Notes under the pieces: generated by a model
Seen by the model: only the letters and a program-made list of their open reading frames with translations
What the model was told of the DNA's origin: nothing
The model's database searches: none
NCBI GenBank assembly: GCA_018673485.1
Contig: JABHCP010000012.1
Coordinates: 30,393 to 94,392 of the forward strand
DNA: 64,000 bases
Source of the DNA: Candidatus Uhrbacteria bacterium
GTDB taxonomy: Bacteria > Patescibacteriota > Patescibacteriia > UBA9934
Direction: 5' to 3'
Part shown: positions 2,060 to 51,857 of the stretch, one piece after another
Numbering within the stretch: position 1 is the first letter of the stretch
How the letters are laid out: each line of letters begins with the position of its first letter
Program-made: the position numbers and the translations under genes

Positions 2060-3682
2060 ATGAATAATATGAATATTAAAAAACAATTCGTAGGTGACGC
2101 AATGTGGATTGCATTGAGTTTAATGGGCATCATGCACGCACTTGCATTTTTTGTGCGTGATACTGGATTCGAGTTGCCGATATTTATTATATTCGGCATT
2201 TTTGTTTTGATAGTTTCCTGGCGATCGCAGTTGAATGGATTACTGATCGCGTTTGCTGAGATCTTTGTAGGTGGTCACGGACATTTGTTAGACATCGAGG
2301 TCCTCGGATTTTCATTATCGATTCGAATGTTAATCTTCGCGATCGTGATGACTGTGTGGTTGATTAAATACGCTCGGATCCCCCTACTTTTCAAGGAGGG
2401 GCCAGGGGTGGTTATTTCTCGTATGATTTTTGTCCGTGATTTACCTTGGCTGGTGCTGATCGTGGCTGTAGCTGTCGGAACACTGATCGGTTTTCTACAA
2501 AATGATCCATCTGCGGCATTCGACGATATGAATGGATATGTGGTGATCGGATATTTATTACCCATACTGACTATCAAGTGGGGTCAAGAAAACAAGAGAA
2601 AGTTACTCCAAGTTTTATTTGCGTCGGTTGTATGGATTATGGGATTCACGGTTGCACTCGCATATGCATTTACTCACATCGACGGTGACAACCTGCACAA
2701 TCTTTACACATTCGTTCGCGATTCAAGATTGGCCGAGGTCACGTTGCAGGTTATTGGATCGGACGTTCCATTTTTGAATCGATTTGAGGGTGATTATTGG
2801 TATCGAATTTTCATGCCAACGCAGACCATTGTCATGTTCGGAATGTTGTTGATGTATGCCTCGGCAATGTATCTCTGGCGAAAAAGCAAAAGCCCGTGGT
2901 TCATGTGGGTTATGTTTGGACTTTCAATTTTGACCATCATATTAAGTTTGTCGCGTAGTTTTATTTTGGGTGCAGTCGCTGGCGGTTTGATTATATTTAT
3001 AACAGCTTGGATGTTTGGAAAGGGGAAGTGGTCGATTGTTGTCAGGACTCTTGGTTCTGTTGTGGTTTCGATCTTCGCGGTCTTGTCGATCATTGCGATT
3101 GTGCAAGTTCCAATACCGCAAAGACCCGACTTGAGTGATGCTGCGTTTTTTGAAACGTCATCAGACACAGGGCGATCCGAGGCGGTAGTAAGTCGCTGGA
3201 ATCTCCTTGATCCGATGATGGATGAGATAATTGAAAGCCCGATTATTGGATCGGGGTTTGGTAAAGAGGTAACGTATACATCAGAAGATCCTAGGATAAT
3301 ATCTGAGCTTGGAAATCAGGGATATACAACTTATAGATTCGAATGGGGATGGCATGATATTTGGCTTAAAATGGGTCTATTAGGGCTTGCGGGCTTCATT
3401 TGGTACATTGTGTCGATTGTGCGTGTTGGGTGGTTTACAATGCAGTCCAAGGGCCACAAATGGCTAGTTATTGGATTGGTCGCCGGGATTGTTGGGCTTT
3501 TCGTAACGCACACGTTCTCACCATATCTAAATCACCCAATCGGACTAAGTCTGATGCTATTTATCATTCCGTTTATTGATTGGGATGGGTTCGCAAAGAA
3601 GCGTAAGGAGGCGTATATAGAGGTTAGAAAAAAGAAACTGATGAAACGACCAGCGACAGTAGTTGCATCAAATATTAAATAA
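2060..3682 (+). CDS. Polytopic integral membrane protein, possibly O-antigen ligase/polymerase-like
   Basis: 540 aa with more than 10 hydrophobic helices, immediately downstream of the glycosyltransferase cluster; assignment is by context only. Confidence 0.4.
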   Translation: MNNMNIKKQFVGDAMWIALSLMGIMHALAFFVRDTGFELPIFIIFGIFVLIVSWRSQLNGLLIAFAEIFVGGHGHLLDIEVLGFSLSIRMLIFAIVMTVWLIKYARIPLLFKEGPGVVISRMIFVRDLPWLVLIVAVAVGTLIGFLQNDPSAAFDDMNGYVVIGYLLPILTIKWGQENKRKLLQVLFASVVWIMGFTVALAYAFTHIDGDNLHNLYTFVRDSRLAEVTLQVIGSDVPFLNRFEGDYWYRIFMPTQTIVMFGMLLMYASAMYLWRKSKSPWFMWVMFGLSILTIILSLSRSFILGAVAGGLIIFITAWMFGKGKWSIVVRTLGSVVVSIFAVLSIIAIVQVPIPQRPDLSDAAFFETSSDTGRSEAVVSRWNLLDPMMDEIIESPIIGSGFGKEVTYTSEDPRIISELGNQGYTTYRFEWGWHDIWLKMGLLGLAGFIWYIVSIVRVGWFTMQSKGHKWLVIGLVAGIVGLFVTHTFSPYLNHPIGLSLMLFIIPFIDWDGFAKKRKEAYIEVRKKKLMKRPATVVASNIK

Positions 3683-3685
3683 ATA

Positions 3686-3714
3686 AAAAGCCAGCTGTTA
3701 ATGCTGGTTTTTGC
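3686..3714 (+). terminator. Rho-independent terminator hairpin (aaaaagccagc-tgttaa-tgctggttttt)
   Basis: GC stem followed by a T-run directly after the stop at 3682. Confidence 0.5.
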
Positions 3715-3768
3715 AAAAAGAAACACCCCAACTAGGTGGGGCGTAACGAATGATGTGTGGGCCGCTAG

Positions 3769-3865
3769 TGGCCACGACTGCTACCGATTCAACGAATTGA
3801 TATCAGCGCTAGTTCACATCGGTCCAAATTTCAGTCTAGGTGACAGGCAGGCCGCTAGTGGCCAC
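3769..3865. repeat. Two direct copies of the 16-mer GGCCGCTAGTGGCCAC (3769-3784 and 3850-3865) at the boundary of a high-GC locus
   Basis: Exact 16-bp direct repeat read from the sequence; a CCCCA-N-TGGGG hairpin lies at 3723-3745. Confidence 0.5.
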
Positions 3866-4457
3866 AGTTCCCATCTGAACCCCGATGTTGTTGGGGTCCA
3901 CAGCGGTAGTTTCCGCTGCTTTCTTGGATTTCTTCAGTCGGATCCGGTTGGACCGACGTGACTTCAAATCCGTAGTGGCTTACCTCTACCAACCTCTTGC
4001 CGCGCCGTTTTTGCCATACGTGCCAGCGGTGAAAGTGGTGCAGGTCTTCTGGATTGTTCATCCAGATGGTGAAGTACCGAATTACCTCTTCGAGGATTTG
4101 TTCCTCATCGAGCTTTTTCGGACTCCAGAACACTAGCAGTAGTTCTCTGCCGGGCGTTCCATTGATCTCGAATGGTCCGAGATCCAGGGTCTCGAGAATT
4201 CCATTCTTCTCTGCTTGGGCGAGGACTGATATTCTCCCATCAGGTCCGCATGTGTAGAGGTAGACCCAACGCTCACTCCTCTTCGAGGACGACACGTGCA
4301 AGGTGAGATCATCTCCCATGACGAGTTGTTCATCGAAATGGAAAGTCAGCCGTTGCTCACCTCGAGTGATTGTACCGGAGACACCAGCAGCGTTTGCTGG
4401 TCTCAAGGGCAGGGCCAGGGTGAGTAGGGCGACGAGCAGGGCGAGGGTGCGCTTCAT
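3855..4457 (-). CDS. Hypothetical secreted protein encoded in a high-GC locus
   Basis: Start at MKRTLALLVALLTLALPLRPANAAG (signal peptide); GC about 58% against a roughly 38% background; hairpin (gggacaatcctgtcc) and AAAGGA precede the ATG. Confidence 0.55.
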   Translation of the reverse strand: MKRTLALLVALLTLALPLRPANAAGVSGTITRGEQRLTFHFDEQLVMGDDLTLHVSSSKRSERWVYLYTCGPDGRISVLAQAEKNGILETLDLGPFEINGTPGRELLLVFWSPKKLDEEQILEEVIRYFTIWMNNPEDLHHFHRWHVWQKRRGKRLVEVSHYGFEVTSVQPDPTEEIQESSGNYRCGPQQHRGSDGNCGH

Positions 4458-4607
4458 GGGGTCCTTTCTTGCTCTGTTGGACAGGATTGTCCCGACTGCA
4501 TTCCAAATAATTGAATTATTTTGCATTTGAAACACAGGCGGGCAGTCGAAGGCGAATCCTTCGACCACGGAGTGGTCCGTTGGGACCTGATAGAGAAGAC
4601 GGCTACA

Positions 4608-5120
4608 TCAGGGGTTGATCTTGTAGACTAGTCCCCAGAAGCCGTTGGTGCGCACCATACCATTGAGGTGATGCGTCAGTCCGATGTGGCTCGGGTTTGC
4701 GACGTGACAGGTGTTGCTCCTGTACGTCTTGTTTCCTTCGTTGCGCAGGGCGGAGACGTTTGATGTCCCTCGCGCCCAGACCACGTGATCCCAGGTCAGG
4801 TCGTAGGTCTCAGGGACTTCGAACATCGGCTGGGCGGTGTAGAACGGGTACCTTTCCAGCCGTTCACCCTTGACGAGCATCGCTCCACGGATGACGTCTC
4901 GGAAGTTGACCGTTTCGTACACTTCTTCGCTGCCAACGAAGAAGGTGGCCTCTGGGTTTTCTGCGTCGAAGCTCAGCACCATGAAGATGCTGTTGGGAGC
5001 CTCGACTTCTTCCTGCGTGCAGGCCAAGGGGCCGCCGGCGTAGGCCGGGTTGGGGTTGGACACCGCGAATGCGGCCATGATGGCCAAGATCGCGAGGACG
5101 ACAGCGTTGGTGCGCTTCAT
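4608..5120 (-). CDS. Hypothetical secreted protein encoded in a high-GC locus
   Basis: MKRTNAVVLAILAIMAAFAVSNPNPAYAGG signal peptide; leader is CCCGCAAAG, hairpin (gacgga cccct ccgtc), GAAGGCG, ATG. Confidence 0.6.
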   Translation of the reverse strand: MKRTNAVVLAILAIMAAFAVSNPNPAYAGGPLACTQEEVEAPNSIFMVLSFDAENPEATFFVGSEEVYETVNFRDVIRGAMLVKGERLERYPFYTAQPMFEVPETYDLTWDHVVWARGTSNVSALRNEGNKTYRSNTCHVANPSHIGLTHHLNGMVRTNGFWGLVYKINP

Positions 5121-5213
5121 CGTAACGCCTTCCGACGGAGGGGTCCGTCTTTGCGGGAATTAATCATCCCACCTGTATTTCAAAATAAATTGTTAAAGAA
5201 AGAGAACGAAAAA

Positions 5214-5241
5214 GAATAGCATAAAAATGCAATTCTGTCAA
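5214..5241 (-). promoter_or_regulatory. Sigma70-like promoter TTGACA-17bp-TATTCT on the minus strand, reading into the high-GC locus
   Basis: Reverse complement of 5213-5241 is ttgacagaattgcatttttatgctattct. Confidence 0.4.
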
Positions 5242-5257
5242 TAGTAATGCGCTAGTT

Positions 5258-6196
5258 TTAGCCTAATATAGTGTTGTTGAGATCCTTATGACCCTGAATG
5301 AACGCTGTAGCTGACATCTTTGAACTATTTTGTGGTTGAAGTTCAAGCACTTCAATTACCTTTGTTTTAGTCCCAATGAATAATCGGTTTTCTTCGATTT
5401 GTGCAAGTCCTGGTGCTAAGCTCTTGTCTGAGATTTGCAGGTCATGAATCTTGATAGTTGTTTTGGTCTCATTGCGCTTCCAGATTGTGAAAACCCCTGG
5501 CCATTCGATTAAAGCTCGGAATTGTGCGTAGATGGCGTCAGCTGGTTGGTTCCAGTTGATCTTGCCATCAGCCTTAGTTAGCATTTTGCAAAATGTTGCT
5601 TGTTCGTGATCTTGTTCTTGCGGCTTAACTTTATCGGCTACATATTTCTTTATCGTATCGATAAGTAGCGGCGCTCCTGTCTTTGCAGCTTTTGCACGCA
5701 GGCTTGTTGATGTTTCATCGTTGCCGATTTTCATTTTTTGTTGCGACAGAATAGGTCCATGGTCCATCTTGTCATCAACTAGCATGATCGAGACCGCTGT
5801 CTCGGATTCTTCGTTTAGTATTGTAGATTGAATTGGTGATGGTCCACGATATTTTGGAAGTAGGGAAGGGTGAACATTTACTGTGCCAAGTTTTGGAATA
5901 TCTAAAACTTCTTGTGGAATGATTTTCCCGTAAGCGATAATTACAAATAGATCAGCTTCGAGCTTCTTGAGTTCTTCAGCGATATTGGATGTTCGAAGAT
6001 TGTCAGGTTGAAAAACTGCAATGTCATTCTCTTGAGAGAAAATTTTTGTCTCAGGTGCTGTCAAAATCTTTTTTCGCCCAACAGGTTTGTCTGGTTGGCA
6101 AACTACTCCTTTAATCGAAAATACCTCATCAGCATGTAATGTAGCGAGGAATTCTTTTGCAAATTCAGGCGTTCCAAAAAAGACTGTTTTGATCAT
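5258..6196 (-). CDS. fmt: Methionyl-tRNA formyltransferase
   Basis: MIKTVFFGTPEFA...VVCQPDKPVGRKK N-terminal formyltransferase motifs; 312 aa. Confidence 0.85.
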   Translation of the reverse strand: MIKTVFFGTPEFAKEFLATLHADEVFSIKGVVCQPDKPVGRKKILTAPETKIFSQENDIAVFQPDNLRTSNIAEELKKLEADLFVIIAYGKIIPQEVLDIPKLGTVNVHPSLLPKYRGPSPIQSTILNEESETAVSIMLVDDKMDHGPILSQQKMKIGNDETSTSLRAKAAKTGAPLLIDTIKKYVADKVKPQEQDHEQATFCKMLTKADGKINWNQPADAIYAQFRALIEWPGVFTIWKRNETKTTIKIHDLQISDKSLAPGLAQIEENRLFIGTKTKVIEVLELQPQNSSKMSATAFIQGHKDLNNTILG

Positions 6197-6272: not shown

Positions 6273-6809
6273 ATGGAGATCATTGTCTGCACAGAGAACA
6301 GGGCAAAAGTTCAAGCTATAACGGAAGTTTTTAGCAACTTGCACCCTGAGGCGAATATTATCAGTAAAAGCTTTTCGTCAGATATTTCCGATCAACCAAT
6401 GAGTGAAGAGGAAGGGCTCGACGGTGCTATAAATCGTGCGAATAATGCCAGACGGGAATATTTAGAAGCACATTATTGCATTGGCATGGAAGGGTTTGTT
6501 GATGTTAATAAATTCGGTATGTTCCTCGCTGGCGCTGTGGCGATTATTGATCAGCAGGGTATAATTGGCTTAGGGACGAGCGCTAAAGTTCTGTTGCCTA
6601 AGTTTATTGCAAAAGAAATTGAGGCTGGTGTCGAGTTGGGCCCACTTGTAAAAGACTTAATGGATGATGTAAAAGGTGAAATTCGTCATAGTGCAGGTAC
6701 GACAGGTGTTTTAACAAAGGGTCTTTATAATCGTGTTGATGAATTTAAGGATGCAACAAAGTGCGCATTGGCAAGATTTCAGTCACCTAAACTTTTTGAG
6801 ATTCAATAA
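6273..6809 (+). CDS. yjjX: Inosine/xanthosine triphosphatase (YjjX family, non-canonical purine NTP phosphatase)
   Basis: 178 aa; MEIIVCTEN...KVQAITEVF and EEGLDGAINRANNARREY resemble the YjjX pattern. Confidence 0.6.
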   Translation: MEIIVCTENRAKVQAITEVFSNLHPEANIISKSFSSDISDQPMSEEEGLDGAINRANNARREYLEAHYCIGMEGFVDVNKFGMFLAGAVAIIDQQGIIGLGTSAKVLLPKFIAKEIEAGVELGPLVKDLMDDVKGEIRHSAGTTGVLTKGLYNRVDEFKDATKCALARFQSPKLFEIQ

Positions 6810-7020
6810 TTCTGAAATTATTGTTTTGATCCTTGCTGAGGTTAGCGCTAACTTATATCAGGGTATGTAAGTATTTGACTTACTCAATATATCTGCTAGA
6901 CTTATTTTAGATAGATAAATATGTTTATAAATATAGCAAATAGTCAGGGATGGCGATGGAATTGCAAAGAAACTGCATGACCATTGTTTTGTTTGTAAAT
7001 TTTTAATAAAAAAATTAAAA

Positions 7021-7053
7021 CTCCACCTGGTCAGCAGGTGGAGTTTTTGTTTT
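7021..7053. terminator. Hairpin terminator ctccacctg-gtcagc-aggtggag followed by a T-run, flanked by an A-run (likely bidirectional)
   Basis: 9-bp perfect stem followed by TTTTTGTTTT. Confidence 0.5.
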
Positions 7054-7156
7054 GACGCTTGTTTCTTGTGACGTAATAATCGCCAGCACAAAACTTCTAT
7101 CATATTTGTAAATGAGGTGCGCTGGACTCATTTATAAAAACAAAAGGAGACTCGTC

Positions 7157-7369
7157 ATGAGTAATTCTTGTACCCATAAGTGGGAATATGTTGGAAGAAT
7201 ACCTGGATATTGGTGTTCTCGTGATCTGTATTGCTGCATTCATTGTGGCCATACCTGCAGAGGATCAGAATTCGATGCATTTGGATATGCATGCGGCACT
7301 GCAGGAAAACCTGAAGCTGGTGAGGGTGGCAATGAAGCTGCAACCTCTGATAAAGAGAGCAGAGATTAG
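7157..7369 (+). CDS. Small Cys-rich hypothetical protein (about 70 aa)
   Basis: AAAGGAGACTCGTC-ATG ribosome-binding site; MSNSCTHKWEY...CCIHCGHTCRG cysteine cluster; start could be 7112 instead. Confidence 0.4.
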   Translation: MSNSCTHKWEYVGRIPGYWCSRDLYCCIHCGHTCRGSEFDAFGYACGTAGKPEAGEGGNEAATSDKESRD

Positions 7370-7942: not shown

Positions 7943-8034
7943 AGAAGATCTCTCGTGGGACTCGAGATGGGGGCGGAGGTATGGTCGAGATGGTGATTGA
8001 CATTATCCATTTCGATGCATCAGAGAAATCTTCT
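7943..8034. repeat. Palindromic dispersed repeat family R2 (AGAAGATCTCTC...CGAGATGG...TTCCATTTCGA...GAGAAATCTTCT), copy 1
   Basis: Shares termini and core with the copies at 26388, 26903 and 58079. Confidence 0.6.
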
Positions 8035-9760
8035 AATAATATTTAGAATACTTGCTTAATATTGTAACATTGTCTGGAAGTTCTTTTAATCTTTTCAGGA
8101 TTTCTTTTCTTTGTTTATTGTCTGTTGTTAGTAGAAATGAGCCTTCTTGTTCAATACATTCATCGCGAATGTCACTTGGAACTAAGTCCAATTTCCCTGA
8201 CATGATGAATTGATCAGCGTATGGAGGAAGTTTATATTGTTCTCTTAGTTCATTTTCTTGTTCAAGAAACGATTCCGAATCCAGCATCGGTTTGATAACT
8301 TTCGGCATCCAGGTTTGAATGATGCATTGCGCTTTATGGTGATGTGCCATGTGCATAATTCGATGCAATCGATACGCAGTTGTGATGGAAGATTCGTAAT
8401 TGTCACCTAGTGATTTCTCCGCCATCAGTTCAACTATTAACTCGAATCTATTTTCCGGAAATGGTTTGTAGATACTTTGAAAGTAGTGCTCGGTGACGAT
8501 TGAAACATCGGCGTTCGAATCAGTTGAGTGCTCTTTGTCAATTACTTGAATTTTCGCATTCGTAAATTTCTTTTGCAGATTGTCAGCGATTTTTTTGTTG
8601 CCAATCCCTCGTGTGCTTAGTGTTTTTTTGTTGCATGCCGGGCATGCCTTTGGTATCCACATTTCCGTTGCGCAAACCGGGCATACGAGATCATCCAAAC
8701 GGACATGAGGTTTTGAGCCGCAACTACCGCACATTGGAATGTGGTGACAGGATCGACACTGTAGATGCTTGGCAACACCCTTGCAGTTGTAGGAAATTAG
8801 CACTTTTTTGCCATTTTGTAAAGCATTAGATATGGCATCGAGTGAAGTTTCAGAAATCAGAGGGATGCCAGTTTTTTCCCTTGAGTCAGCTAGGTTGATG
8901 ATTTGAGCCTCGGCTCTCGGAGTTATGTGTATCGGATCATTTGCTTGTTCTAGTCTTGAAAGCGACCCCACGGTAATGATTTGTGCTTTGTGTTGGTCGG
9001 CGAGCAACTCTGCGGCAAGTCGGGCATTGTAACGAGGGTTACGGCTGTAGCTGACATGATCGTCACTTTGCGGGTCGAATACTATGACCGTATCGATTTT
9101 TTTAGCAGGGATGAGTGAACTTTGTTTTGTACCGATTAGAATCTTTAGGTCTCCGCTTTGCCAATTTTCCATTATCCATCTGCGCCTTGCTATTGAAGTA
9201 TGACCGTGTAGCTTTGCGTGAGGTTTAGATAAAAATTGTGAAATAGTTTCAGCGTCATATTCTCGCGGGCATAAAACAAGAACCTGATTCTTGGCTTTTT
9301 TTACAGCCAAGCTCATTGCCACTATTGAACCCTCAAAGCTTGTCTCGATCGAGCCGCGATTGTCGTTAAGGGATGTTCCAATTATCTTTGCAGTTTCTTT
9401 ATCCATCGATCCTGACTTTGAACCTGACCCGTGTTGTGGCGTTGATTTGGAATGCGTGAGGCCTTGCAAGGCACTTGTAAGTACCGTACTAGGGGACTGC
9501 AGTATTTGCTCTGCGATGAGCTCGAGTCGCTTGATGTCACCTGACGTCATGAACTTTGTGTATCGAATGGATTCGATTGTTTGCAATCGCTTAAACTCAG
9601 ATGTATCGGTAATCCCACGAACAATGCCCGCCACCGATCGACCTTTGAGGGGCATATAGACAAGATCGCCGATTTGCACGTTGAGCTCTTCTGAAATTTT
9701 GTAATCAAAAAACGCAAATCTCCTTGGCAATCGCCTTAATGGAATGATTTGCGCGTACAT
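8033..9760 (-). CDS. priA: Primosomal protein N' (PriA-like) with apparently degenerate helicase ATP-binding motifs
   Basis: N-terminal 3'-DNA-binding-like domain (MYAQIIPLRRLPRRFAFFDYKI...GRSVAGIV) and a C-terminal Cys4 zinc module (CRSC...CGSC...CPVC...CPAC); the expected Walker A GxGKT reads FEGSIVAMS and Walker B reads DPQSDDH. Confidence 0.65.
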   Translation of the reverse strand: MYAQIIPLRRLPRRFAFFDYKISEELNVQIGDLVYMPLKGRSVAGIVRGITDTSEFKRLQTIESIRYTKFMTSGDIKRLELIAEQILQSPSTVLTSALQGLTHSKSTPQHGSGSKSGSMDKETAKIIGTSLNDNRGSIETSFEGSIVAMSLAVKKAKNQVLVLCPREYDAETISQFLSKPHAKLHGHTSIARRRWIMENWQSGDLKILIGTKQSSLIPAKKIDTVIVFDPQSDDHVSYSRNPRYNARLAAELLADQHKAQIITVGSLSRLEQANDPIHITPRAEAQIINLADSREKTGIPLISETSLDAISNALQNGKKVLISYNCKGVAKHLQCRSCHHIPMCGSCGSKPHVRLDDLVCPVCATEMWIPKACPACNKKTLSTRGIGNKKIADNLQKKFTNAKIQVIDKEHSTDSNADVSIVTEHYFQSIYKPFPENRFELIVELMAEKSLGDNYESSITTAYRLHRIMHMAHHHKAQCIIQTWMPKVIKPMLDSESFLEQENELREQYKLPPYADQFIMSGKLDLVPSDIRDECIEQEGSFLLTTDNKQRKEILKRLKELPDNVTILSKYSKYY

Positions 9761-11941: not shown

Positions 11942-12090
11942 AGTGGAGTTATTATAGCAGTTATCAGGGCTCAATGCACAGCGCTCAGTGTATGATTTTG
12001 GTGCCTATTAGTGCTCTAAAACTGTGAACTGAGTACTGTAAACTGTGTACTTTTATTGCCTAAAATTAGCCCCAAATCCACGGTTAGCTA

Positions 12091-12119
12091 TTGACAAACT
12101 TGTCATTTTGTGCTATAGT
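12091..12119 (+). promoter_or_regulatory. Sigma70-like promoter TTGACA-17bp-TATAGT reading into a high-GC locus
   Basis: ttgacaaacttgtcattttgtgctatagt; exact consensus -35 with a 17-bp spacer. Confidence 0.45.
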
Positions 12120-12363
12120 ACTTCTTGTAAGATCAAGCAATTGATCCCTTGCAAACAACTTGAGAGAGCCCTAACTTCTGGGTAAAAGAAGTATCCATCA
12201 ACATCGCTATTGTGGCGTGTTGGTAGAAAGCCGGTTATCTCTCTTAATTAAGAAAGGTAGCCGGTTTTCTTTATAGGTGAGGTAGTCAGACCTGAATAGA
12301 CAATGTCTAAGTAGATCTGACCACCTCGACCACCACCACAAGCCCACCCGGGCTGGAGCCACC

Positions 12364-12444
12364 ATGAACACCATCCTCTCCCTGATCGCCGCCTTCACTT
12401 GCACCGCCGGCCCCGTCGCGCTGATCGCCAGCGTGATGATGTAG
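12364..12444 (+). CDS. Putative 26-aa hydrophobic peptide (MNTILSLIAAFTCTAGPVALIASVMM)
   Basis: Hairpin (agcccacccgggct), GGAGCCACC, ATG; followed by the hairpin cacctgattcgtcaggtg; resembles the signal peptide of the lipoprotein at 12681. Confidence 0.3.
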   Translation: MNTILSLIAAFTCTAGPVALIASVMM

Positions 12445-12680
12445 TCCTCGTGCTACATCGGCCATCTTCTCACCTGATTCGTCAGGTGAGCTACCCCCAA
12501 CCTTTGATCAAGTATCGAAGTTTGAGAGTAGCTCATAGCACTCCTCGAGCATAGGAAAGAGCGCACCTTACATATCTCTCACTCCACTTTTTCCTTTGCT
12601 CAAGGAGCGTATGCGAGTCGAATTTCTCGACCAACACGCAAGAATGACCCCCATCGCCTTCGGGCGAGAGTGAGAACATC

Positions 12681-13196
12681 ATGAACATGACCAACATCCT
12701 GCGCGTCGCCCTGTACTCCCTGATCGCCGCCCTGAGCCTGACCACCACCGGTTGCTTCGACCTGTCGAACGCTGGTGTGGACTGCTACTGGGACAGTGAG
12801 TCCGGCGCCCCCATCTGCGATGTGGGTGTGGGTACCGGCTACGGCAGTGGCAGCGGCAGCTACGAAGACACCGTCTGGGTGATGTGGGAGTCCTCCAAGC
12901 CAGAGCGTTTGACGGACTTCACCATGACGTGCACGTTCGATGACCGTGAGAACGAGAAGTTCTCCATCATCGCTGACGTCTATATCACCGACAGTTACTA
13001 CGTGGATGCCTATTTTCCGGGCGTGCCCAGCCACTTCGATGCAGTGTGCAGTGGTATGGCATACTTCAACGGAGTGGAGATCCCGTTGTTCTCCGGTGAG
13101 GTCCCGACCGGCGACGTCCTAGTCGTTCAGTGGGAAGATGAGCAAGTTGACAATTTCTGGGCTCGTAACAACGAGCTGGATATTGACTACAACTAG
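12681..13196 (+). CDS. Hypothetical lipoprotein encoded in a high-GC locus
   Basis: MNMTNILRVALYSLIAALSLTTTGC lipobox-like signal; hairpin (cgccttcgggcg) about 20 nt upstream of the ATG; GC about 58%. Confidence 0.55.
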   Translation: MNMTNILRVALYSLIAALSLTTTGCFDLSNAGVDCYWDSESGAPICDVGVGTGYGSGSGSYEDTVWVMWESSKPERLTDFTMTCTFDDRENEKFSIIADVYITDSYYVDAYFPGVPSHFDAVCSGMAYFNGVEIPLFSGEVPTGDVLVVQWEDEQVDNFWARNNELDIDYN

Positions 13197-13263
13197 CCTC
13201 ACCATCCAACCCCTCCTTCTCGACCCCCGCATGCCTAGCATCGCGGGGGTTCGACACGTCTAG

Positions 13264-13300
13264 GAAATGTTTAAGTTGTTGAAAATGTTTAAAGTGTTTA
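13264..13300. repeat. AT-rich dispersed repeat family R4 (GTTTAAGTTGTTGAAAATGTTTAAAGTGTTTAC)
   Basis: Related copies at 17021-17100, 18858-18895 (inverted), 22705-22742 and 43421-43510. Confidence 0.5.
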
Positions 13301-13480
13301 CTTTGAGATAAAAAATTATCCATGATATGAGCGATCGCTCACATCATGGATAATTTGTATGCATAACTATTTTGCAAAACAGGATGGCTGCGCCAGCCGA
13401 AGCCAACATCTGTATAGCTGTGAATCTATCTCCGCAGAACAATCTTTGATATACCACGGTGATAGTAAAACAGCGAAGGC

Positions 13481-13557
13481 TGGTGGACCCTACCGGGCTC
13501 GAACCGGTGACCTCTTGCCTGCCAGGCAAGCGCTCTAGCCAACTGAGCTAAGGGCCC
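13481..13557 (-). tRNA. tRNA-Ala (anticodon GGC), CCA encoded
   Basis: Manual fold: acceptor GGGCCCT/AGGGTCC with a G3:U70 pair; D arm GCTC/GAGC; anticodon loop CUGGCAG; T arm ACCGG-TTCGAGC-CCGGT; discriminator A. Confidence 0.85.
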
Positions 13558-13566
13558 ATGAACACG

Positions 13567-13575
13567 ATTATATCA
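13567..13575 (-). promoter_or_regulatory. Extended -10 element TGATATAAT upstream of tRNA-Ala
   Basis: Minus strand reads TGATATAAT about 11 nt before the tRNA 5' end, preceded by the perfect palindrome CAGGCTTAGCC-N5-GGCTAAGCCTG (13574-13600). Confidence 0.35.
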
Positions 13576-13639
13576 GGCTTAGCCATTTAGGCTAAGCCTG
13601 ATTGACTAGGTCTGTGAATCTCAGTTTTGTATTTATATG

Positions 13640-14260
13640 ATATAGCAAAGAGCCGCCTGGCAGAGATTGCGAGGAGGCTCAAGGGTGCTCACACCGGCCG
13701 AGTAGGTCATGGCGCACGGCGATCGGTTTGGTGACCGATGTGGGCAGGGCGAACGTGTAGAATATGACCCGTACCAGGCCTTTTCGAAGTCCCACTCCCG
13801 GTTGGGTGTGATTTTTCAAGGCACAGGTCATAAGAGGGTGGCTGCGGAGCGGGTCATGGCCCTCGCTCACACACCTCCACGGCACTTGCAGTACGTCGCA
13901 TCGTTCGATTGCTCCCGGCCCGCACTAATGTTATGGGCTTTGGCGTCGATCGCGTCGTTTGGTAGCGTGGCCTGTTGAGGTGCTTAGGCTGGAGCTCACC
14001 GCTCCGCAGCCTGGTTTGAAAGAGGGGGTTCTCACGCGACGCGCTTCCTCCCTAGTGACTGCTCAGCGTGATTGCTGTGGTGGTACGACAGTTGCCGGAT
14101 CGTCGATCACCCGCCCCGAAAGCCCGGGACTTGCATTTGGACTCTTTCTAACCAAGATTGGTGGCCGTGAAAAGCAGCGTCGACCTGGCAGTCGATACAG
14201 TCCGAATTGCTCGAACCACACTGCGGACGGTCTGTCGCCCTCACGGCCATAGAATGAACT
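13640..14260. other. About 620 bp high-GC segment without a convincing ORF: candidate structured non-coding RNA or decayed foreign cassette
   Basis: GC about 60%, yet only short out-of-phase ORFs of 100 aa or less on either strand; RNase P and tmRNA hallmark motifs were looked for and not found. Confidence 0.3.
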
Positions 14261-14363: not shown

Positions 14364-17003
14364 TTATCGAACAGTGATTTTTACTGCGTCTTGTATGACG
14401 TCGATTGTTACGGTGCTTTCTTCTGGGACTTCGCCTTGCACTATCTTCATGGCTAGTGGGTCCAGGATTTTGTGTTGGATGATTCTCTTGAGCGGACGAG
14501 CGCCGTATTGAGGATCATAGCCTTCCTTTGCTAGATACTTTTTGGCACGCTCAGTAACCTTCACTATAATCTGTTTTTGACTGCTTAGGCGCTGTGCCAC
14601 TAAGTCAACTTGGAGTTGAACAATGTCGGCGATGTGACTTTCTGAAAGTGCGTGGAAGAAGATTATTTCATCCACTCGGTTTAGGAACTCTGGTTTGAAT
14701 TGTTCGCGCATCATTTCCATCACGCGGTCTTTAACTCCGTTGGATTCATTGTGCTCGCGGACAGAGTCATCATCAAAACCAATGTTTCCAGCTTTTTCGG
14801 AATTGAGTATAAACTCAGAGCCGATATTGGATGTCATTATAATGATTGTGTTTTTGAAGTTCACACGTCGACCCTTGGCGTCAGTTAGGTGGCCGTCATC
14901 CAAAACCTGCAAAAGCATGTTGAAAATGTCTGGGTGTGCTTTTTCGATTTCATCAAAGAGAATGACAGAGTAGGGGCGTCGTCTCACTTTTTCTGTAAGT
15001 TGTCCGGCCTCATCGTGGCCGATGTATCCAGGAGGGGATCCGATCATTTTGCTTACACTATGCTTTTCCATATACTCTGACATGTCCACGCGGATGAGTG
15101 CTTCCTCGTCGTCAAACATGAAGTCTGCCAATACCTTTGCCAGCTCTGTTTTACCAACTCCAGTTGGACCCAAGAATATAAATGATCCGATCGGTTGCTT
15201 TTCCTCACTGATTCCAGCGCGTGATCGTCGCAGGGCATTGCTCACCGCAGTAATCGCTTCGTCTTGCCCGATAACTTGAGATTTCAAATCATCTTCCATG
15301 GTGGCAAGTTTTTCCATTTCACCCTGGAGCATCTTGCTCATTGGAATGTGTGTCCAGCGCGAAACGATTGATGCGATTTCTTCTGGCCCGATTTCTTCTT
15401 TTAATAGCCCACGTTCTTCTTGGAAGTTTTTAAGTTCAGTCTGAGCATCCTCCAGGTTTTCTCGTTTTTCAGGAATTACGCTGTAACGGATCTCTGCAAC
15501 TTTTTGCAAATCACCTTTACGCTCTTCAATGTCTGATTCGTTCGTAAGTTTGTCGATTTCATCCTTTAGATTTCTAATCTTCTGGATAATTGCTTTTTCG
15601 TTTTTCCAACGCAGCTCAAGCTCTGAGGATTGCTCTTTTGAGTCACCAATTGATTTTTCGATTTGCTTCAGTCTTTGCTTTGACTGCTTGTCTTTTTCTT
15701 TGAGTAGTGATTGCTTTTCAATCTCCAAGCGCATTTCTTCACGCTTGAGCCGATCAAGCTCCTCAGGCATTGAGTCGATTTGCATTCTAAGTGCTGCCGC
15801 TGACTCATCCATCAAGTCGATCGCCTTGTCTGGCAAGAATCGCTCAGTAATGTAGCGACTTGAAAGCTCAGCTGCTGCAACAAGTGCTGCGTCACTAATC
15901 CGCACTCCGTGGTGAATCTCGTATTTTTCCTTAATACCACGCAGGATCGCAATGGTATCAGGCACAGATGGTTCCTCAACTATCACGGGTTGGAATCTAC
16001 GTTCAAGCGCTGCGTCTTTCTCAATGTACTTTTGATATTCTTTAAGTGTTGTTGCACCAATCACACGCATCTCACCACGAGCAAGAGCAGGCTTTAGCAT
16101 GTTACTCGCATCCATGGGGCTTTCTTCACCTTTACCAGCACCAACTAAGTTATGTAGCTCATCGATGAATAAAATCATCTTACCGTCTGACTGTTCAATT
16201 TCCTTTACCACCGCTTTTAGACGTTCTTCAAACTCACCGCGGAATTTTGTTCCAGCAACGAGTGCTCCTAGGTCAAGTGAGATAATCTCGCGGTTCTTTA
16301 GCATTTCAGGAACATCTTCGGCAACAATTCTCTGGGCTAGTCCTTCAGCTATTGCAGTCTTACCAACTCCAGCTTCTCCAATGAGCACTGGGTTGTTCTT
16401 TTTGCGGCGAACTAATACTTGCATCAGCCGTCGAATTTCTTCGTCTCGTCCAATGACTGGGTCGAGTTTTCCAAGGCGTGCATATTCAGTTAGGTTTATG
16501 CTGTATTTTTCCAGCGCCTGGAACTTTGCTTCCGGATCAGCCGAATCCACCTTTTGATTTCCACGCACATCTTTGAGCGCTTCAAGGGTTGGTTTTACTT
16601 CAATTCCTTGACCAGTTAAGAACTGAGCGACTTGTTTATTTTGCAAGAGCGCTAAAAACAAATGTTCTGTTGAGATAAAATCATCACCAAATTGTTTAGC
16701 TTGGTTTGCGCTGTTTTGCATTGTCTTAGCTAGGGCAGGGGAGAGAAGAACCTGTCCCATTCCACTTTGATTAAAACCAAAGTTTTTTGGAAGAGATTGC
16801 AGTATTTGATCGACCTGCGAAATAAGTCGATTCACGTTGATCTTCATTTTTTGCAAGAGTGACGGAATAATTCCAGCGTCTTGATTTATAAGACTAGCAA
16901 GAAGATGAATCGGGTCAACCGCCTGCTGACCATTTTCATTAGCCAGCATCTGAGCCACCTGAATGGCTTCCTGAGATTTAGAAGTAAAGTTATTGGGTAT
17001 CAT
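14364..17003 (-). CDS. clpB: ATP-dependent chaperone ClpB (AAA+ disaggregase)
   Basis: 879 aa; two AAA+ modules ([18 protein letters not shown] and [15 protein letters not shown]) separated by a coiled-coil M domain. Confidence 0.9.
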
Positions 17004-17020
17004 AATGATTGTTGAAAGTG

Positions 17021-17100
17021 ATGAAGATGTTTGAAATATTTACTTCGAAATAAACACTTTAAACAAGTGAGGCCAGAGGCCAAACGATTGGACATTTTAA
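17021..17100. repeat. Repeat family R4, long copy (about 75% identical to 43426-43510)
   Basis: gtttgaaatatttacttcgaaataaacactttaaacaagtgaggccagaggccaaacgattggacattttaaac aligned by eye to 43430-43510. Confidence 0.55.
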
Positions 17101-17148
17101 ACATTATTAGCACTCCCAAGTATAGAGTGCTAATTCGAATTCGTCAAA

Positions 17149-17343
17149 CTGTGGACAGAGGTTCAACCTCTGTCCACAGGTAGGAGTCGAACTCTCAGAG
17201 GATAAGCTTCCTGTGGATAACAGTTAAACTGCTGTCCACAGCGGATGCGAGAAACCCACCGGCGCGAGGCGGCGGTGGGTAGAAGGCTAGCAGTCCGACT
17301 CTCGGGAGCCGGACTCTCAGATGGGGAACTTCCTGTGGATAAG
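17149..17343. promoter_or_regulatory. Cluster of five DnaA-box-like 9-mers with a 13-bp perfect inverted repeat and a roughly 31-bp direct repeat, in the clpB upstream intergenic region
   Basis: TTATCCACA, the exact consensus, on the minus strand at 17212-17220 and 17335-17343; CTGTCCACA variants at 17150-17158 (minus strand), 17170-17178 and 17232-17240; palindrome ctgtggacagagg-ttcaa-cctctgtccacag at 17149-17179. Confidence 0.45.
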
Positions 17344-17391
17344 TGGCAGAACATTGTGAATAAGGGGGATTTATCGTAGGATATAGTCATT

Positions 17392-17802
17392 ATGACTTTA
17401 AAGAAAGCTTTTTTAATCATTGCGATTGTATTGGTTTTTCATTTTGTTGGTTTGGCCTTTGATGCCTATGGAGTGTTTGAGTGGTACGACATTCCAATGC
17501 ACATTGGTGGTGGATTCGCTATGGCCGCATTAGGGCTGGCGATTTGGATTGAGGGTGTTGAAGATGTAACTTTCAAAGGTTGGTTTCAAAAGCACTTGAA
17601 ATGGTGGCTTGTTCCTGGAATAGTTCTCGGATTCGTTTCATTGATCGGGATACTTTGGGAATTGCATGAGTTCATTCTTGATGAGATTTTTCCACGTGCA
17701 CTGGAGTTGAAGCATCAGCCAGGTTTGGCAGACACCATGATGGATTTTGTAATGGATTTACTTGGCGGTGTTATCGCCTTGATCGTATTTTGGCGACGTT
17801 AG
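17392..17802 (+). CDS. Hypothetical small membrane protein (4 predicted helices)
   Basis: 136 aa, hydrophobic segments throughout. Confidence 0.5.
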   Translation: MTLKKAFLIIAIVLVFHFVGLAFDAYGVFEWYDIPMHIGGGFAMAALGLAIWIEGVEDVTFKGWFQKHLKWWLVPGIVLGFVSLIGILWELHEFILDEIFPRALELKHQPGLADTMMDFVMDLLGGVIALIVFWRR

Positions 17803-17803
17803 T

Positions 17804-18766
17804 ATGAAACATGAACTATTTAAAATTTCGATAGATGATTTAAACGACGCGGAGCTTGAGACTGAGCTTGTTTCTTTTTTATATTCAAATTCAACAAAAC
17901 TCATTGCGACACCAAATGCCGAGATGCTTGTTGATGCAATTCAGGATAATGGCAACCCCCCTGAATCCCCCCTTGCCCATTCGACAGGCTCAGGGCACCC
18001 TGAGGAATCGAAGGGTGGGAAGAGGGGAGGCGCATTTCGTGATGCGCTTTCGAATACAGATCTGAACTTGCCCGACACAGTCTCGATTCGGTTTGCGGTA
18101 TCTGCTTTGACTGATAATAGACTTAAGAATCGACACACGGGCGTTGATACACTGCAGAGCTTGATAGAACTTTGTGCAAGGGAAGGGAAGAGTGTTTTAT
18201 TCTTTGGAGGAAATGTCGAGACTCTAAAGCTTGCAAAAAAGAAAGTTGAAGGTAGTCTTCCGCAGACCCTCCTTCGTGAGGAGATGGGGCCAGTGATTAC
18301 ATCTACTCAGTATCAAGGAAGAGATAGAGACGGTTTTAGTATTTCGATTCTGGATCCTGGCGCTGTTGAGCTAGTTGACGATGGGGTTGTCATCGAAAGC
18401 TCGATGATGAATAGAATCAACAAAATCAAGCCAGACGTCATTGCGATCGCTTTGCCTCATAAAAAGCAGTTGGCATTCATGCGTCAATTTAAGGATGAGT
18501 TTCCAAGCGTAAAGATTATGATCGGTGTAGGGGGTGCGCTTGATATGATCAGTGGCAGATTAAAAAGGGCGCCAAAATGGATGCGTAGGACTGGCTTGGA
18601 ATGGCTGTGGCGTGTGTTGATAGAACCAAGCAGGATTGGTAGGATTCTAAAGGCGAGCGTTGCCTTTCCCGCACTGGTCACGATTGAAACAATCAAGCGC
18701 GGCAGGTTCATTAAGGCAGTTAAGAACACAGCTCCTGAGATCATTCGGCAGTTGAGTGGAAAGTAG
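17804..18766 (+). CDS. tagA: WecB/TagA/CpsF-family glycosyltransferase carrying an in-frame repeat-derived insertion
   Basis: C-terminal GGALDMISGRLKRAPKWMRRTGLEWLWRVLIEPSRIGR family signature; residues GNPPESPLAHSTGSGHPEESKGGKRGG are encoded by repeat R1 at 17951-18030. Confidence 0.75.
   Translation: MKHELFKISIDDLNDAELETELVSFLYSNSTKLIATPNAEMLVDAIQDNGNPPESPLAHSTGSGHPEESKGGKRGGAFRDALSNTDLNLPDTVSIRFAVSALTDNRLKNRHTGVDTLQSLIELCAREGKSVLFFGGNVETLKLAKKKVEGSLPQTLLREEMGPVITSTQYQGRDRDGFSISILDPGAVELVDDGVVIESSMMNRINKIKPDVIAIALPHKKQLAFMRQFKDEFPSVKIMIGVGGALDMISGRLKRAPKWMRRTGLEWLWRVLIEPSRIGRILKASVAFPALVTIETIKRGRFIKAVKNTAPEIIRQLSGK
17951..18030 (+). repeat. RPE-like palindromic repeat R1 (GGCAACCCCCC...CTCAGGGCACCCTGAG...GGGAAG.GGGAGG), intragenic in-frame copy
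   Basis: Near-identical copies at 18772-18851, 36417-36495 (reverse) and 38839-38920 (reverse). Confidence 0.8.
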
Positions 18767-18895: not shown

Positions 18896-20359
18896 ATGAC
18901 TCCAGCACGAACGCGTTTGGCACCTAGTCCGACAGGTTTTATTCACATCGGAACATTGCGTACGGCACTCTTTGATTATTTTTTAGCAAAGCAAACTGGC
19001 GGTCAGTTTGTTTTAAGAATCGAGGACACTGATCAGAGTAGGCTTGTGGAAGGTTCTTTGGAAAATTTACTCGAGACATTCAAGTCAGTCGGAATTGAGC
19101 CTGACGAGGGTCCGGTTTTGCAAGACGACGGATCAACTATCGAGAAAGGTGAATACGGTCCTTATGTTCAGTCAAAGCGATTGGATATTTACAAGCCATA
19201 CGTTGAGAAGCTAATTGAGCAAGGCGACGCGTACCAGTGTTTTTGTACAAAGGAACGACTTGATGAAATGAGAGAAAAGCAGCGAGCTACGAAGCAGACT
19301 CCAAAGTATGACCGAAAGTGTTGCGCACTAACTGCGGAAGAAGTGAAGGCAAAGATTGATGCAGGAGAATCATATGTAGTACGAATGAAGGTGCCAGAAG
19401 GTGAAACTATTTTTGAAGATATTGTTCGAAATTCGGTTAAGTTTCAAAATTTAGATGTAGACGATCAGGTAATTCTGAAGTCTGACGGTTTTCCGACTTA
19501 TCATTTGGCCGTCGTTGTTGACGATGCGCTCATGAAAATCTCGCACATCGTGCGTGGTGAGGAGTGGCTTTCATCAACTCCAAAGCATATTATGCTCTAC
19601 AAGATGTTGGGGTTTGAAATGCCGACTTTTGCTCACGTTCCGTTGCTTTTGAATCCAGACAAGACAAAGCTTTCTAAACGTCAGGGTGACGTTGCGGTTG
19701 AGGATTATCTTAAGAAGGGCTACCTCGTAGAAGCGCTGCTCAACTTTATCGGCACACTCGGATTTAATCCAACTGGAGACCGAGAGATTTATTCTTTCGA
19801 TGAGTTGGTGGAGATGTTTGATTTATCAAAGGTAAAAAAGAGTGGCGCGGTAATGAACATCGAAAAGCTCGACTGGATGAATAATCAGTATTTGAAAAAA
19901 ATGGAGGCCAAAGACCTAATTGAGGTTGCAAAGCCATTTGTGAGTATCGATCTTGAAAATGAAACGGTCGGCCGTGCTTTGATAATTGAACGCGATCGAA
20001 TCAATCGACTAGACGAGTTGCAAGAAAAACTCGAGCCTTATGTAGCTGAGTTTGCATACGACTCTGAACTCTTGATCTGGAAAAAGGCAGACGCAGCTGA
20101 CGCTAAGGCACAACTCGAAGGCGTTAAGAAGTTCGTTGAAACGTTAGAAGACGCAGCCTTTGTGAATGTTGAAGCGCTCGAGAGGGAAGTGCGCGCATAC
20201 ATCGAATCCAACGATCTGCAAAACGGAAACGTACTCTGGCCACTACGCGTAGCACTATCAGGTGCCGCAAAATCAGCCTCACCATTTGAGTTATTGTGGG
20301 TGTTTGGAAAAGAGAAGGGGATTGAGAAGATCGATAAAGCGATTGGGTTGCTCGCATAA
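18896..20359 (+). CDS. gltX: Glutamyl-tRNA synthetase
   Basis: RLAPSPTGFIHIGTLRTALFDY class I HIGH region and KLSKRQ (KMSKS-type) motif. Confidence 0.9.
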   Translation: MTPARTRLAPSPTGFIHIGTLRTALFDYFLAKQTGGQFVLRIEDTDQSRLVEGSLENLLETFKSVGIEPDEGPVLQDDGSTIEKGEYGPYVQSKRLDIYKPYVEKLIEQGDAYQCFCTKERLDEMREKQRATKQTPKYDRKCCALTAEEVKAKIDAGESYVVRMKVPEGETIFEDIVRNSVKFQNLDVDDQVILKSDGFPTYHLAVVVDDALMKISHIVRGEEWLSSTPKHIMLYKMLGFEMPTFAHVPLLLNPDKTKLSKRQGDVAVEDYLKKGYLVEALLNFIGTLGFNPTGDREIYSFDELVEMFDLSKVKKSGAVMNIEKLDWMNNQYLKKMEAKDLIEVAKPFVSIDLENETVGRALIIERDRINRLDELQEKLEPYVAEFAYDSELLIWKKADAADAKAQLEGVKKFVETLEDAAFVNVEALEREVRAYIESNDLQNGNVLWPLRVALSGAAKSASPFELLWVFGKEKGIEKIDKAIGLLA

Positions 20360-38828: not shown

Positions 38829-38838
38829 ATGCTTATAT

Positions 38839-38920
38839 CCTCCCCCTTCCCACCCATCGATATAACTCAGGGTGCCCTGAGCGGAGTCGAATGGGCAAGG
38901 GGGAGTTAGAGGGGGTTGCC
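38839..38920 (-). repeat. Repeat R1, intergenic copy that supplies the GGAGG ribosome-binding site of the helicase gene
   Basis: Minus strand reads ...gggaagggggaggatataagcat-ATG. Confidence 0.8.
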
Positions 38921-38962
38921 TTTAATCTCATTCGATCGAATTATTGGTCTCATTTTACCATA

Positions 38963-38991
38963 ATTGACAAAAGGCCTTTTTAATGATAGAT
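38963..38991 (+). promoter_or_regulatory. Sigma70-like promoter TTGACA-17bp-TAGATT for high-GC cassette A
   Basis: ttgacaaaaggcctttttaatgatagatt. Confidence 0.45.
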
Positions 38992-39057
38992 TTAATCGTC
39001 TTCCAGATACCAACTCGCCCGCAAGGGCATGGGCTTAAAGCCCGAAGGAGGCGTAAG

Positions 39058-39729: not shown

Positions 39730-39824
39730 TGATCGCGACTCGCCCCCCCCCGTACGTCTCGAACCCCCACCTCGTGGGGGTTCTTCGTTTTCAGCAAAAA
39801 CATTGCTAATTCTGGCCAAAAGCC

Positions 39825-39853
39825 TTGACAAAAGGGCTTTTTTCTGCTATTGT
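39825..39853 (+). promoter_or_regulatory. Sigma70-like promoter TTGACA-17bp-TATTGT for cassette B (a duplicated copy of the cassette A promoter context)
   Basis: ttgacaaaagggcttttttctgctattgt. Confidence 0.45.
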
Positions 39854-39929
39854 TAGCAGTTCAAAAAGAACACCTGTGTGTGAAACTTCGCCCGTAAGGG
39901 TATGGGCCTAAAGCCCAAAGGAGGCTGTA

Positions 39930-40577: not shown

Positions 40578-40636
40578 CTTGCCTCTGACCGATCTTATCT
40601 TGAACCCCCACCTCGTGGGGGTTCTGTGCATCCAAA

Positions 40637-40669
40637 AGAAAACAACCGCCTTGCGACGGTTGTTTTTTG
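40637..40669. terminator. Bidirectional terminator aaaacaaccgcc-ttgcga-cggttgtttttt
   Basis: Stem with A/T runs on both sides, between convergent genes. Confidence 0.6.
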
Positions 40670-40685
40670 TATCAATTAGTGAGCG

Positions 40686-51783: not shown

Positions 51784-51857
51784 TGGCGCCGATGGCAGGA
51801 ATTGAACCTGCGACCCCCTGCTCGACGGCAGGTGCTCTATCACTGAGCTACATCGGC
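51784..51857 (-). tRNA. tRNA-Asp(GUC)-like gene with an apparent 6-nt anticodon loop
   Basis: Acceptor GCCGATG/CATCGGC, D arm GCTC/GAGC, T arm GCAGG-TTCAATT-CCTGC, discriminator G, CCA encoded; anticodon stem CCTGC/GCAGG encloses CGTCGA. Confidence 0.55.

Follow-up and report, generated by a model that had tools for sequence, protein, structure and literature searches.

Clusters of DnaA boxes outside the replication origin have been described in B. subtilis, as DnaA-box clusters (DBCs), and in E. coli, as datA, and both affect replication initiation and neighbouring promoters (PMC3245932; PMC4447404). The B. subtilis clusters are intergenic, are associated with genes that differ among species, and act on their neighbours or on initiation (PMC3245932). 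Here we analyse a 64,000-nucleotide stretch of the genome of an uncultured Candidatus Uhrbacteria bacterium (assembly GCA_018673485.1, contig JABHCP010000012.1, positions 30,393 to 94,392; hereafter the window), in which the spacer between clpB and a divergent DUF2238-wecG-gltX operon holds about 215 bp of GC-rich, non-coding DNA (17149-17363), an insert confined to this lineage that carries a dense set of DnaA-box motifs. A first-pass annotation had offered two explanations, a displaced replication origin or a DnaA-titrating or regulatory locus. The insert is not a replication origin. The second explanation is plausible and, judged by motif identity, density, conservation of the boxes and analogy, the best available: the insert may be a non-origin DnaA-box cluster comparable to DBCs or datA and flanking both promoters, an assignment that we regard as possible rather than probable.

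The insert shares with DBCs and datA several DnaA boxes of consensus or near-consensus type packed into a short intergenic region away from oriC, a position between genes or upstream of them with promoters in reach, a location that varies among related species and the lack of an unwinding element. It differs in its long, perfect or near-perfect palindromes and its direct repeat, which are not described features of DBCs or datA, in being younger than the split from relatives with a 90% identical neighbouring protein, and in that its link to DnaA is predicted from sequence, in a host of the Candidate Phyla Radiation (CPR)/Patescibacteria, where no such site has been described. A second point of comparison is the DnaA-regulated promoter, of which nrdAB in E. 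coli is an example. As in sda, ywlC and the autoregulated dnaA of B. subtilis (PMC3245932), the boxes of the insert abut or overlap -35 elements; however, clpB, the DUF2238 protein gene, wecG and gltX are not known DnaA targets, and most of the relatives in which these promoters are retained lack the boxes.

Box motifs and repeats of the insert

A motif search and repeat analysis of the insert give the following features.

17150-17158, minus strand: box 1, CTGTCCACA
17170-17178, plus strand: box 2, CTGTCCACA
17212-17220, minus strand: box 3, TTATCCACA
17232-17240, plus strand: box 4, CTGTCCACA
17334-17342, minus strand: box 5, TTATCCACA
17355-17363, minus strand: box 6, TTATTCACA, one mismatch, overlapping the -35 element of the DUF2238 promoter
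17149-17179, no strand assigned: palindrome P1, perfect over 31 bp (15+1+15), bearing boxes 1 and 2, both CTGTCCACA(G)
17211-17241, no strand assigned: palindrome P2, arms 87% complementary, bearing box 3 (TTATCCACA) and box 4 (CTGTCCACA)
17183-17220, plus strand: direct repeat D1a, its 3' end being box 3
17305-17342, plus strand: direct repeat D1b, its 3' end being box 5 (TTATCCACA, minus strand)
17254-17280, no strand assigned: GC-rich stem-loop ACCCACCGGCG...CGGTGGGT, -21 to -24 kcal/mol, with a UUUCUC tail on the minus strand
17292-17315, no strand assigned: fourth stem-loop, AGTCCGACTC / GAGCCGGACT, overlapping the start of D1b, -18.4 kcal/mol, z = -2.9

The two perfect boxes and three variants that had been annotated within 195 bp are all in place, and the sixth, one-mismatch box TTATTCACA had been missed. 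The perfect form, TTATCCACA, is the DnaA-box type of E. coli and B. subtilis, and the box of the Patescibacteria themselves may differ; CTGTCCACA is one base off TTGTCCACA, which we take to be the box type of actinobacterial origins. The five strong sites share the longer motif YTRTCCACAG, in the ten-nucleotide forms TTATCCACAG and CTGTCCACAG, and the 215 bp thus hold five YTRTCCACA and one TTATTCACA. Successive box starts are 20, 42, 20, 102 and 21 bp apart, corresponding to 1.9, 4.0, 1.9, 9.7 and 2.0 helical turns, with 20 bp within each inverted pair and 21 bp within the tandem pair formed by boxes 5 and 6.

This density is extreme. Every one of the five YTRTCCACA nonamers of the window falls inside 17150-17342, and the annotated 195 bp hold these five and five of the nine TRTCCACA octamers of the window. 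The densest 220 bp of 300 dinucleotide shuffles contained three boxes, a value reached once, and the Poisson probability of the cluster is about 3e-12 per 220-bp stretch. The boxes did not arise independently of one another, being located in repeats and derived by duplication. Across 1.05 Mb of Patescibacteria DNA around clpB, no cluster of at least three boxes in 220 bp was found, and the motif rate there, 0.054 per kb, equals the expectation from composition.

The repeats proved longer than first annotated. What had been called a 13-bp perfect inverted repeat is present, its actual extent being the 31-bp palindrome P1 with 15-bp arms, and the direct repeat given as roughly 31 bp covers 38 nt at 82% identity between D1a and D1b; its first copy had been transcribed with one base wrong and reads GAACTCTCAGAGG..., not GACTCTCAGAGG. 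P1 starts 2 bp from the clpB -35 element and, as RNA, folds on the two strands with -25.7 and -26.3 kcal/mol (z about -5). P2 is 77% identical to P1, and positions 11-12 are altered on both of its arms, so that symmetry is retained. The differences between repeat copies largely spare the boxes: P1 and P2 differ at seven positions, of which one is among the 18 positions of the boxes (P=0.012), and D1a and D1b differ at seven, all outside the box (P=0.094). Local duplication, in the form of the two 31-bp palindromes and the 38-nt direct repeat, probably multiplied a single 10-nt motif, YTRTCCACAG, to five copies, with the sixth, weaker copy lying over the right-hand -35 element. The longest palindrome of the window lies elsewhere, a perfect 40 bp (ATTTTTCACATTTGTCCCGATCGGGACAAATGTGAAAAAT) at 2022-2061 in the gap that separates a glycosyltransferase gene from a Wzy-like one.

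P1 and P2 are unlike the clear terminators of this genome, which are palindromes built from an A-run, a GC stem and a T-run, for example just past the clpB stop codon. A scan of 16800-17600 for intrinsic terminators found none, and the sole partial terminator tail in the region is the UUUCUC of the 17254-17280 hairpin on the minus strand.

Copies of the palindromes or of the insert were found neither elsewhere in the window nor in related loci. An apparent second copy in one related locus (L046) consists of two 16-nt matches inside a coding region and was set aside as chance. A metagenome scan for the D1 unit (CTCTCAGA-N6-8-CTTCCTGTGGA) returned only this locus and seven chance coding matches on unrelated GC-rich contigs, so the element is not a dispersed repeat and does not duplicate any other assembled locus, the oriC of the organism for example. 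A blastn search with settings for distant matches against phage and plasmid collections gave no match. A dispersed repeat of the repetitive extragenic palindrome (REP) or miniature inverted-repeat transposable element (MITE) type, or a mobile element, was rejected, as these searches returned no further copies.

The arrangement of two inverted boxes does recur in viral DNA. In IMG/VR contigs the pair CTGTGGAYA-N13-TRTCCACAG, flanking G included, has 22 matches, 15 of them within clusters of 4-15 box octamers per 300 bp. Very dense arrays occur on some phage contigs: L113 has 17 TRTCCACA in 540 bp (6654-7194) and L116 has 13 in 180 bp (7963-8144), and a microvirus with a Phage_F capsid and a Rep protein has three boxes (L109, 4414-4456). 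These arrays may be phage origins or DnaA sponges.

Flanking promoters and the history of the insert

The surroundings of the insert are as follows, with protein assignments from Pfam.

14364-17003, minus strand: clpB coding sequence, 879 aa (Clp_N, AAA, AAA_lid_9, AAA_2, ClpB_D2-small)
17004-17106, minus strand: clpB 5' leader, 69% AT, between CIRCE/promoter and ATG
17107-17133, no strand assigned: CIRCE, the HrcA operator, TTAGCACTC-N9-GAGTGCTAA, a perfect match at a chaperone promoter
17119-17147, minus strand: sigma-70-type clpB promoter, -35 TTGACG (17147-17142), 17-nt spacer, -10 TATACT (17124-17119)
17354-17382, plus strand: DUF2238-wecG-gltX promoter, -35 TTGTGA (17354-17359), -10 TAGGAT (17377-17382)
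17392-17802, plus strand: DUF2238 membrane protein
17804-18766, plus strand: WecG/TagA glycosyltransferase
18896-20359, plus strand: glutamyl-tRNA synthetase

Pfam and the gene map bear out the annotated position between divergent clpB and membrane-protein genes, and the box cluster exactly fills the gap between the two back-to-back promoters. The clpB promoter scores 10/12 in the promoter scan and has its -10 element within the CIRCE spacer; GTCAA and the CCAAGTATA spacer are conserved in relatives. On the other side, the -10 element lies only 9 nt from the ATG, so that the mRNA of the DUF2238 operon is predicted to be leaderless. A 7-lineage alignment shows the -35 TTG (17354-17356), the -10 GTA..ATA and ATTATGAC to be invariant, and the window reads TTGTGAATA where its relatives show TTGCGAAAA.

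CIRCE has a single match in the window, with 0.02 expected, and resembles the known CIRCE/HrcA system in its perfect inverted repeat, its overlap with the -10 element and transcription start site (TSS) of a chaperone gene and its conservation upstream of clpB. CIRCE classically controls groESL and dnaK; clpB is a less common target, known from Mollicutes. Allowing up to three mismatches, 52 of 76 Patescibacteria loci have a CIRCE in the 250 bp upstream of clpB (loci L011-L090); only three further CIRCE-like sites occur in the 983 kb, which hold 55 in total. Since the operator is kept at these 52 loci, clpB appears to be a core HrcA target across much of Patescibacteria; no hrcA gene was found among the scanned open reading frames (ORFs) of the window. 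ClpB orthologues in Patescibacteria are 55-78% identical to the protein encoded here, the best (72-78%) coming from Uhrbacteria-like metagenome-assembled genomes. The clpB leader varies among relatives, from 12 bp in L091 to over 100 bp in L093 and L098, where it contains other hairpins. Beyond clpB, the GC-rich region at 12-14.3 kb, between a 458-aa ORF and clpB, holds a tRNA-Ala and otherwise only short or Pfam-less ORFs.

Syntenic loci were found through homologues of the DUF2238 protein, and these relatives keep clpB divergent from DUF2238-wecG-gltX-M23 (loci are given by our L numbers). The closest four sampled lineages, listed below with the identity of their DUF2238 protein, have no inserted gene and share CIRCE and both promoters with the window.

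L098: 90% identical, short inter-promoter spacer, no box
L091/L092: 85%, spacer about 173 bp, one perfect TTATCCACAG
L093: 81%, spacer about 130 bp, ATATCCACA
L096/L097: 74%, spacer about 97 bp, no box

Over this range of 74-90% identity and with the same gene order, their spacers span 97-173 bp and hold 0-1 box. From this comparison of sequences, the insert is younger than the split from relatives with a 90% identical neighbouring protein. Contigs of the same strain (n=10) are 100% identical over the spacer and offer neither polymorphism nor covariation.

Other relatives have a gene at this place. In L095, L099-L102 and L011 the exact insert spot is occupied by a small gene, oriented like clpB, with products that are membrane proteins of 67-198 aa, and L012 instead has a 633-aa ORF; Pfam assigned no family to the inserted proteins. 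Between every small gene and the clpB promoter, close to the latter, stands a GC-rich hairpin (ACCCACCGCAGCGTGGCGG after the stop codon in L095, AACCCCGCCGG...CGGCGGTGGTT in L099), and the 17254-17280 hairpin of the window resembles those of L095 and L099; it is probably the terminator of a lost small gene. The inserts of the relatives lie 10-15 GC points above their loci, and the insert of the window has 57% GC against 44%. On the minus strand, P2 reads GTTTAACTGTTATCCACAGGAAGC, resembling a promoter/TSS segment of the L102 small gene (GGTTTAATTGTTGTCCACCCAAGC; TGTGGATGGCAATTCAACC in L099), and L095 shows CTGTGGAAAG at the position of box 1. Every relative also has unrelated palindromes of its own in the spacer or the clpB leader. 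With variable inserts at L095:3215-3960, L099:1010-1300, L100:470-760, L102:1555-1830, L011:5330-5945 and L012:3622-5900, the clpB/DUF2238 inter-promoter spacer is a hot spot of variable GC-rich inserts, which may be horizontally acquired cassettes or encode toxin-like peptides. A tblastn search with the 198-aa insert protein of L095 detected no relic coding sequence in the spacer of the window, whose small ORFs look spurious. Probably, a variable small-gene cassette of this kind once occupied the spot, its gene was lost in this lineage, and local duplication and palindrome formation in a box-bearing remnant gave rise to the insert.

Replication context

The cluster resembles a bacterial oriC in the number and quality of its boxes and in their roughly helical phasing; it differs in having no skew switch, no linkage to dnaA or dnaN, no free unwinding element, no DnaA-trio array and no conservation in syntenic relatives. 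On the scale of the window, the cumulative GC skew that the first-pass annotation had named as a check has no minimum at 17.2 kb and no switch at the site. Calculated at third codon positions (GC3 skew) with the plus strand as reference, the skew is +0.135 for minus-strand and +0.319 for plus-strand genes left of the site and +0.092 and +0.28, respectively, to its right. The same sign on both sides indicates that the fork passes through the site one way and does not start there, and the implied direction, left to right, agrees with the orientation of the ribosomal-protein operon in the 10 kb left of the window (infA-rpsM-rpsK-rpsD-rpoA-rplQ-rplM-rpsI, plus strand, pointing towards the site); the 10 kb to the right hold H+-pyrophosphatase, MscS and pilus genes.

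Pfam scans of the window ORFs agree with the earlier statement that neither dnaA nor dnaN is present, and neither was found in the 10 kb past either window end, which places dnaA more than 27 kb leftward or more than 57 kb rightward of the cluster. A search of the collected loci for a DnaA homologue with a B. subtilis DnaA query gave no match, a weak negative since it had no positive control. Published Patescibacteria origins are located at dnaA/dnaN (PMC12102498), and CPR genomes have normal skew-defined origins (PMC4736985).

The adjacent tract at 17020-17140 had been described as AT-rich. It has 66% AT against a window mean of 56%, which is only moderate and falls in the top 6% of 121-bp windows, and its role as an unwinding element was rejected because it consists of the clpB leader, the CIRCE operator and the promoter and is kept as such in relatives. 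Reading of the sequence beside the boxes revealed no DnaA-trio array, with no run of at least three trios. The last box on the right stands 14 bp from the conserved -10 element and 29 bp from the ATG. The proposal of a displaced origin is thus left unsupported by the unchanged GC3 skew, by the nature of the AT tract and by the absence of the cluster in relatives. High box density alone is no marker of an origin, and predictors that score density would mis-call this cluster.

Gene orientation elsewhere in the window is at odds with the skew. From 22958 to 50267, 27 kb of housekeeping genes (alr, serS, lysS, greA, PBP2, mreBCD, an addA-like helicase gene and the ATP synthase operon) are without exception on the minus strand, against a GC3 skew by which the plus strand is G-rich, and hence presumed leading, over the whole window; this implies either a weak gene-strand bias or a reversed skew convention. 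Further features of the window are GC-rich islands at 3001-6000, 12001-14000 and 38001-41000 (50-55% GC against 44% overall) and two unusual tRNAs on the minus strand. One, at 51875-51984, is Gly(GCC)-like with a 38-nt insertion just past the anticodon loop (Rfam 50.9 bits, no ARAGORN call); the other, adjacent at 51787-51857, has a 6-nt anticodon loop, CGUCGA, and the ARAGORN label 'tRNA-???'.

Readings of the insert and their implications

As a non-origin DnaA-box cluster, the insert would bind DnaA on its inverted box pairs (20 bp apart) and on its tandem pair (21 bp apart), the bound DnaA would be partly held away from oriC and the outputs of the flanking promoters would be tied to DnaA occupancy, a coupling suggested by box 1 abutting the clpB -35 element and box 6 overlapping the other. 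This reading draws on the identity of the motifs, with two perfect TTATCCACA and the near-match TTATTCACA, on their density and on the boxes having stayed intact although the repeats around them diverged. It also fits with the same spacer holding one perfect TTATCCACAG in L091, with its 85% identical neighbouring protein, and ATATCCACA in L093, with the recurrence of the CTGTGGAYA-N13-TRTCCACAG pair in IMG/VR box clusters and with the unlikeness of P1 and P2 to the terminators of the genome.

Several observations weigh on the other side. The cluster is absent from the closest relatives, so any function must be a recent and dispensable one. Symmetry extends through the whole of each palindrome, including the 11 nt between boxes, and P1 and P2 differ by paired changes; this points to hairpin or template-switch biology over selection on the boxes alone, and another dimeric factor would fit too. 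The GC excess and the terminator-like hairpin are shared with the variable cassettes of relatives at the same spot, and part of the insert may therefore be relic DNA. Box 6 is just two substitutions from the ordinary -35 region of relatives, TTGCGAAAA. Finally, a literature search found no paper joining the DnaA box with Patescibacteria.

The strongest competitor takes these points up. The insert would be the rest of a GC-rich variable cassette, a gene for a small membrane protein together with promoter and terminator, which duplication, by slippage or template switching, later turned into palindromes; the box-like motif would have been carried from the promoter/TSS region of the cassette, the boxes would be incidental and the hairpins would at most insulate the divergent promoters. 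We hold this to be possible, if doubtful. The small genes of L095, L099-L102 and L011, with a hairpin after the stop codon, sit at the exact spot, the 17254-17280 hairpin, the GC excess and the likeness of P2 to L102 and L099 have their counterparts there, each relative has palindromes of its own and the closest relative, L098, is without the insert. What it leaves unexplained is why intact boxes stand amid diverged between-box sequence and why two of them are perfect consensus boxes, given that the presumed sources in relatives are poorer (TTGTCCACC, CATCCACAC); moreover, tblastn and small ORFs give no coding remnant, and five boxes in 195 bp are unmatched in 1 Mb of related DNA.

It is improbable that P1 and P2 are operators of a different dimeric transcription factor, 31-bp sites of the form CTGTGGAYA-N13-TRTCCACAG with a GTTNAAC centre whose resemblance to DnaA boxes is coincidental. 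Dyad symmetry over the full length, the change of positions 11-12 on both arms between P1 and P2 and the place of P1 directly upstream of the clpB -35 element would suit such a factor, as would the GTTGAAC/GTTCAAC centres of a different palindrome that L091 has in this spacer. However, the half-site is the exact DnaA consensus, boxes 5 and 6 are tandem and not palindromic, Pfam finds no adjacent regulator gene, the palindrome is without a second copy in the 64-kb window and close relatives that retain both promoters lack the site. By inspection, parS, dif, HAIR, CtsR and LexA boxes were dropped as unfitting sequences, and so was an integron attC site, since GTTRRRY is matched by the P2 centre alone.

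A structured small RNA or leader, in which the four stem-loops (P1, P2, 17254-17280 and 17292-17315) are transcribed, for example on the minus strand ending at P1 followed by UUUGA, is very improbable. The 256-nt region folds better than its shuffles on both strands (z = -5.5 and -5.9) and each hairpin is stable alone, but such surplus folding is a trivial result of DNA palindromes. Rfam reports no RNA family at the region when the whole window is scanned at the gathering score and, with E-values up to 10 at the region itself, only chance microRNA-type hairpins. There is no convincing internal promoter (the best minus-strand candidate scores 9/12 and lies inside the start of DUF2238), and with its promoter 9 nt from the ATG the stretch is not the leader of the DUF2238 operon. 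Homologues that could show covariation are lacking, since strain copies are 100% identical and the D1 scan returned this locus only. A T-box leader for gltX was likewise dropped, given the missing Rfam match and the promoter 9 nt from the first ATG.

A displaced or secondary origin, with DnaA assembling on the boxes and unwinding 17004-17140, is extremely improbable, and the same holds for a second origin acquired so recently that its skew signature has not yet formed: origin-like box density, an adjoining AT-richer tract (66-69% AT) with the short direct repeat ACAYTTTAAACA twice and local gene divergence from the site stand against the unchanged GC3 skew on both gene strands, the rpoA and ribosomal-protein operon directed at the site, an AT tract that is the clpB leader and is set apart from the boxes by the conserved CIRCE and promoter, the absence of trios and of dnaA/dnaN in the window or 10 kb beyond its ends, the missing cluster at the syntenic position in relatives of 74-90% identity and the placement of Patescibacteria origins at dnaA/dnaN (PMC12102498).

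Returning to the DnaA-box cluster, a bolder version of that reading, which we consider rather unlikely, is that this ultra-small CPR bacterium has, in the insert, a functional site for DnaA sequestration and regulation that arose only a short time ago. A single promoter-proximal box would have grown to five or six copies by local palindromic duplication since the split from relatives with a 90% identical neighbouring protein, and an HrcA-controlled clpB and a cell-envelope/gltX operon would have become coupled to DnaA status; if true, this would be a natural example of how a site of the datA/DBC type originates. CPR bacteria have tiny genomes with very few regulators, and how they control replication initiation is unstudied. 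If DnaA binds the insert, the Candidate Phyla Radiation would have its first candidate for a non-origin DnaA-box cluster, and the relatives with and without the cluster would show that such sites can be born quickly by local duplication.

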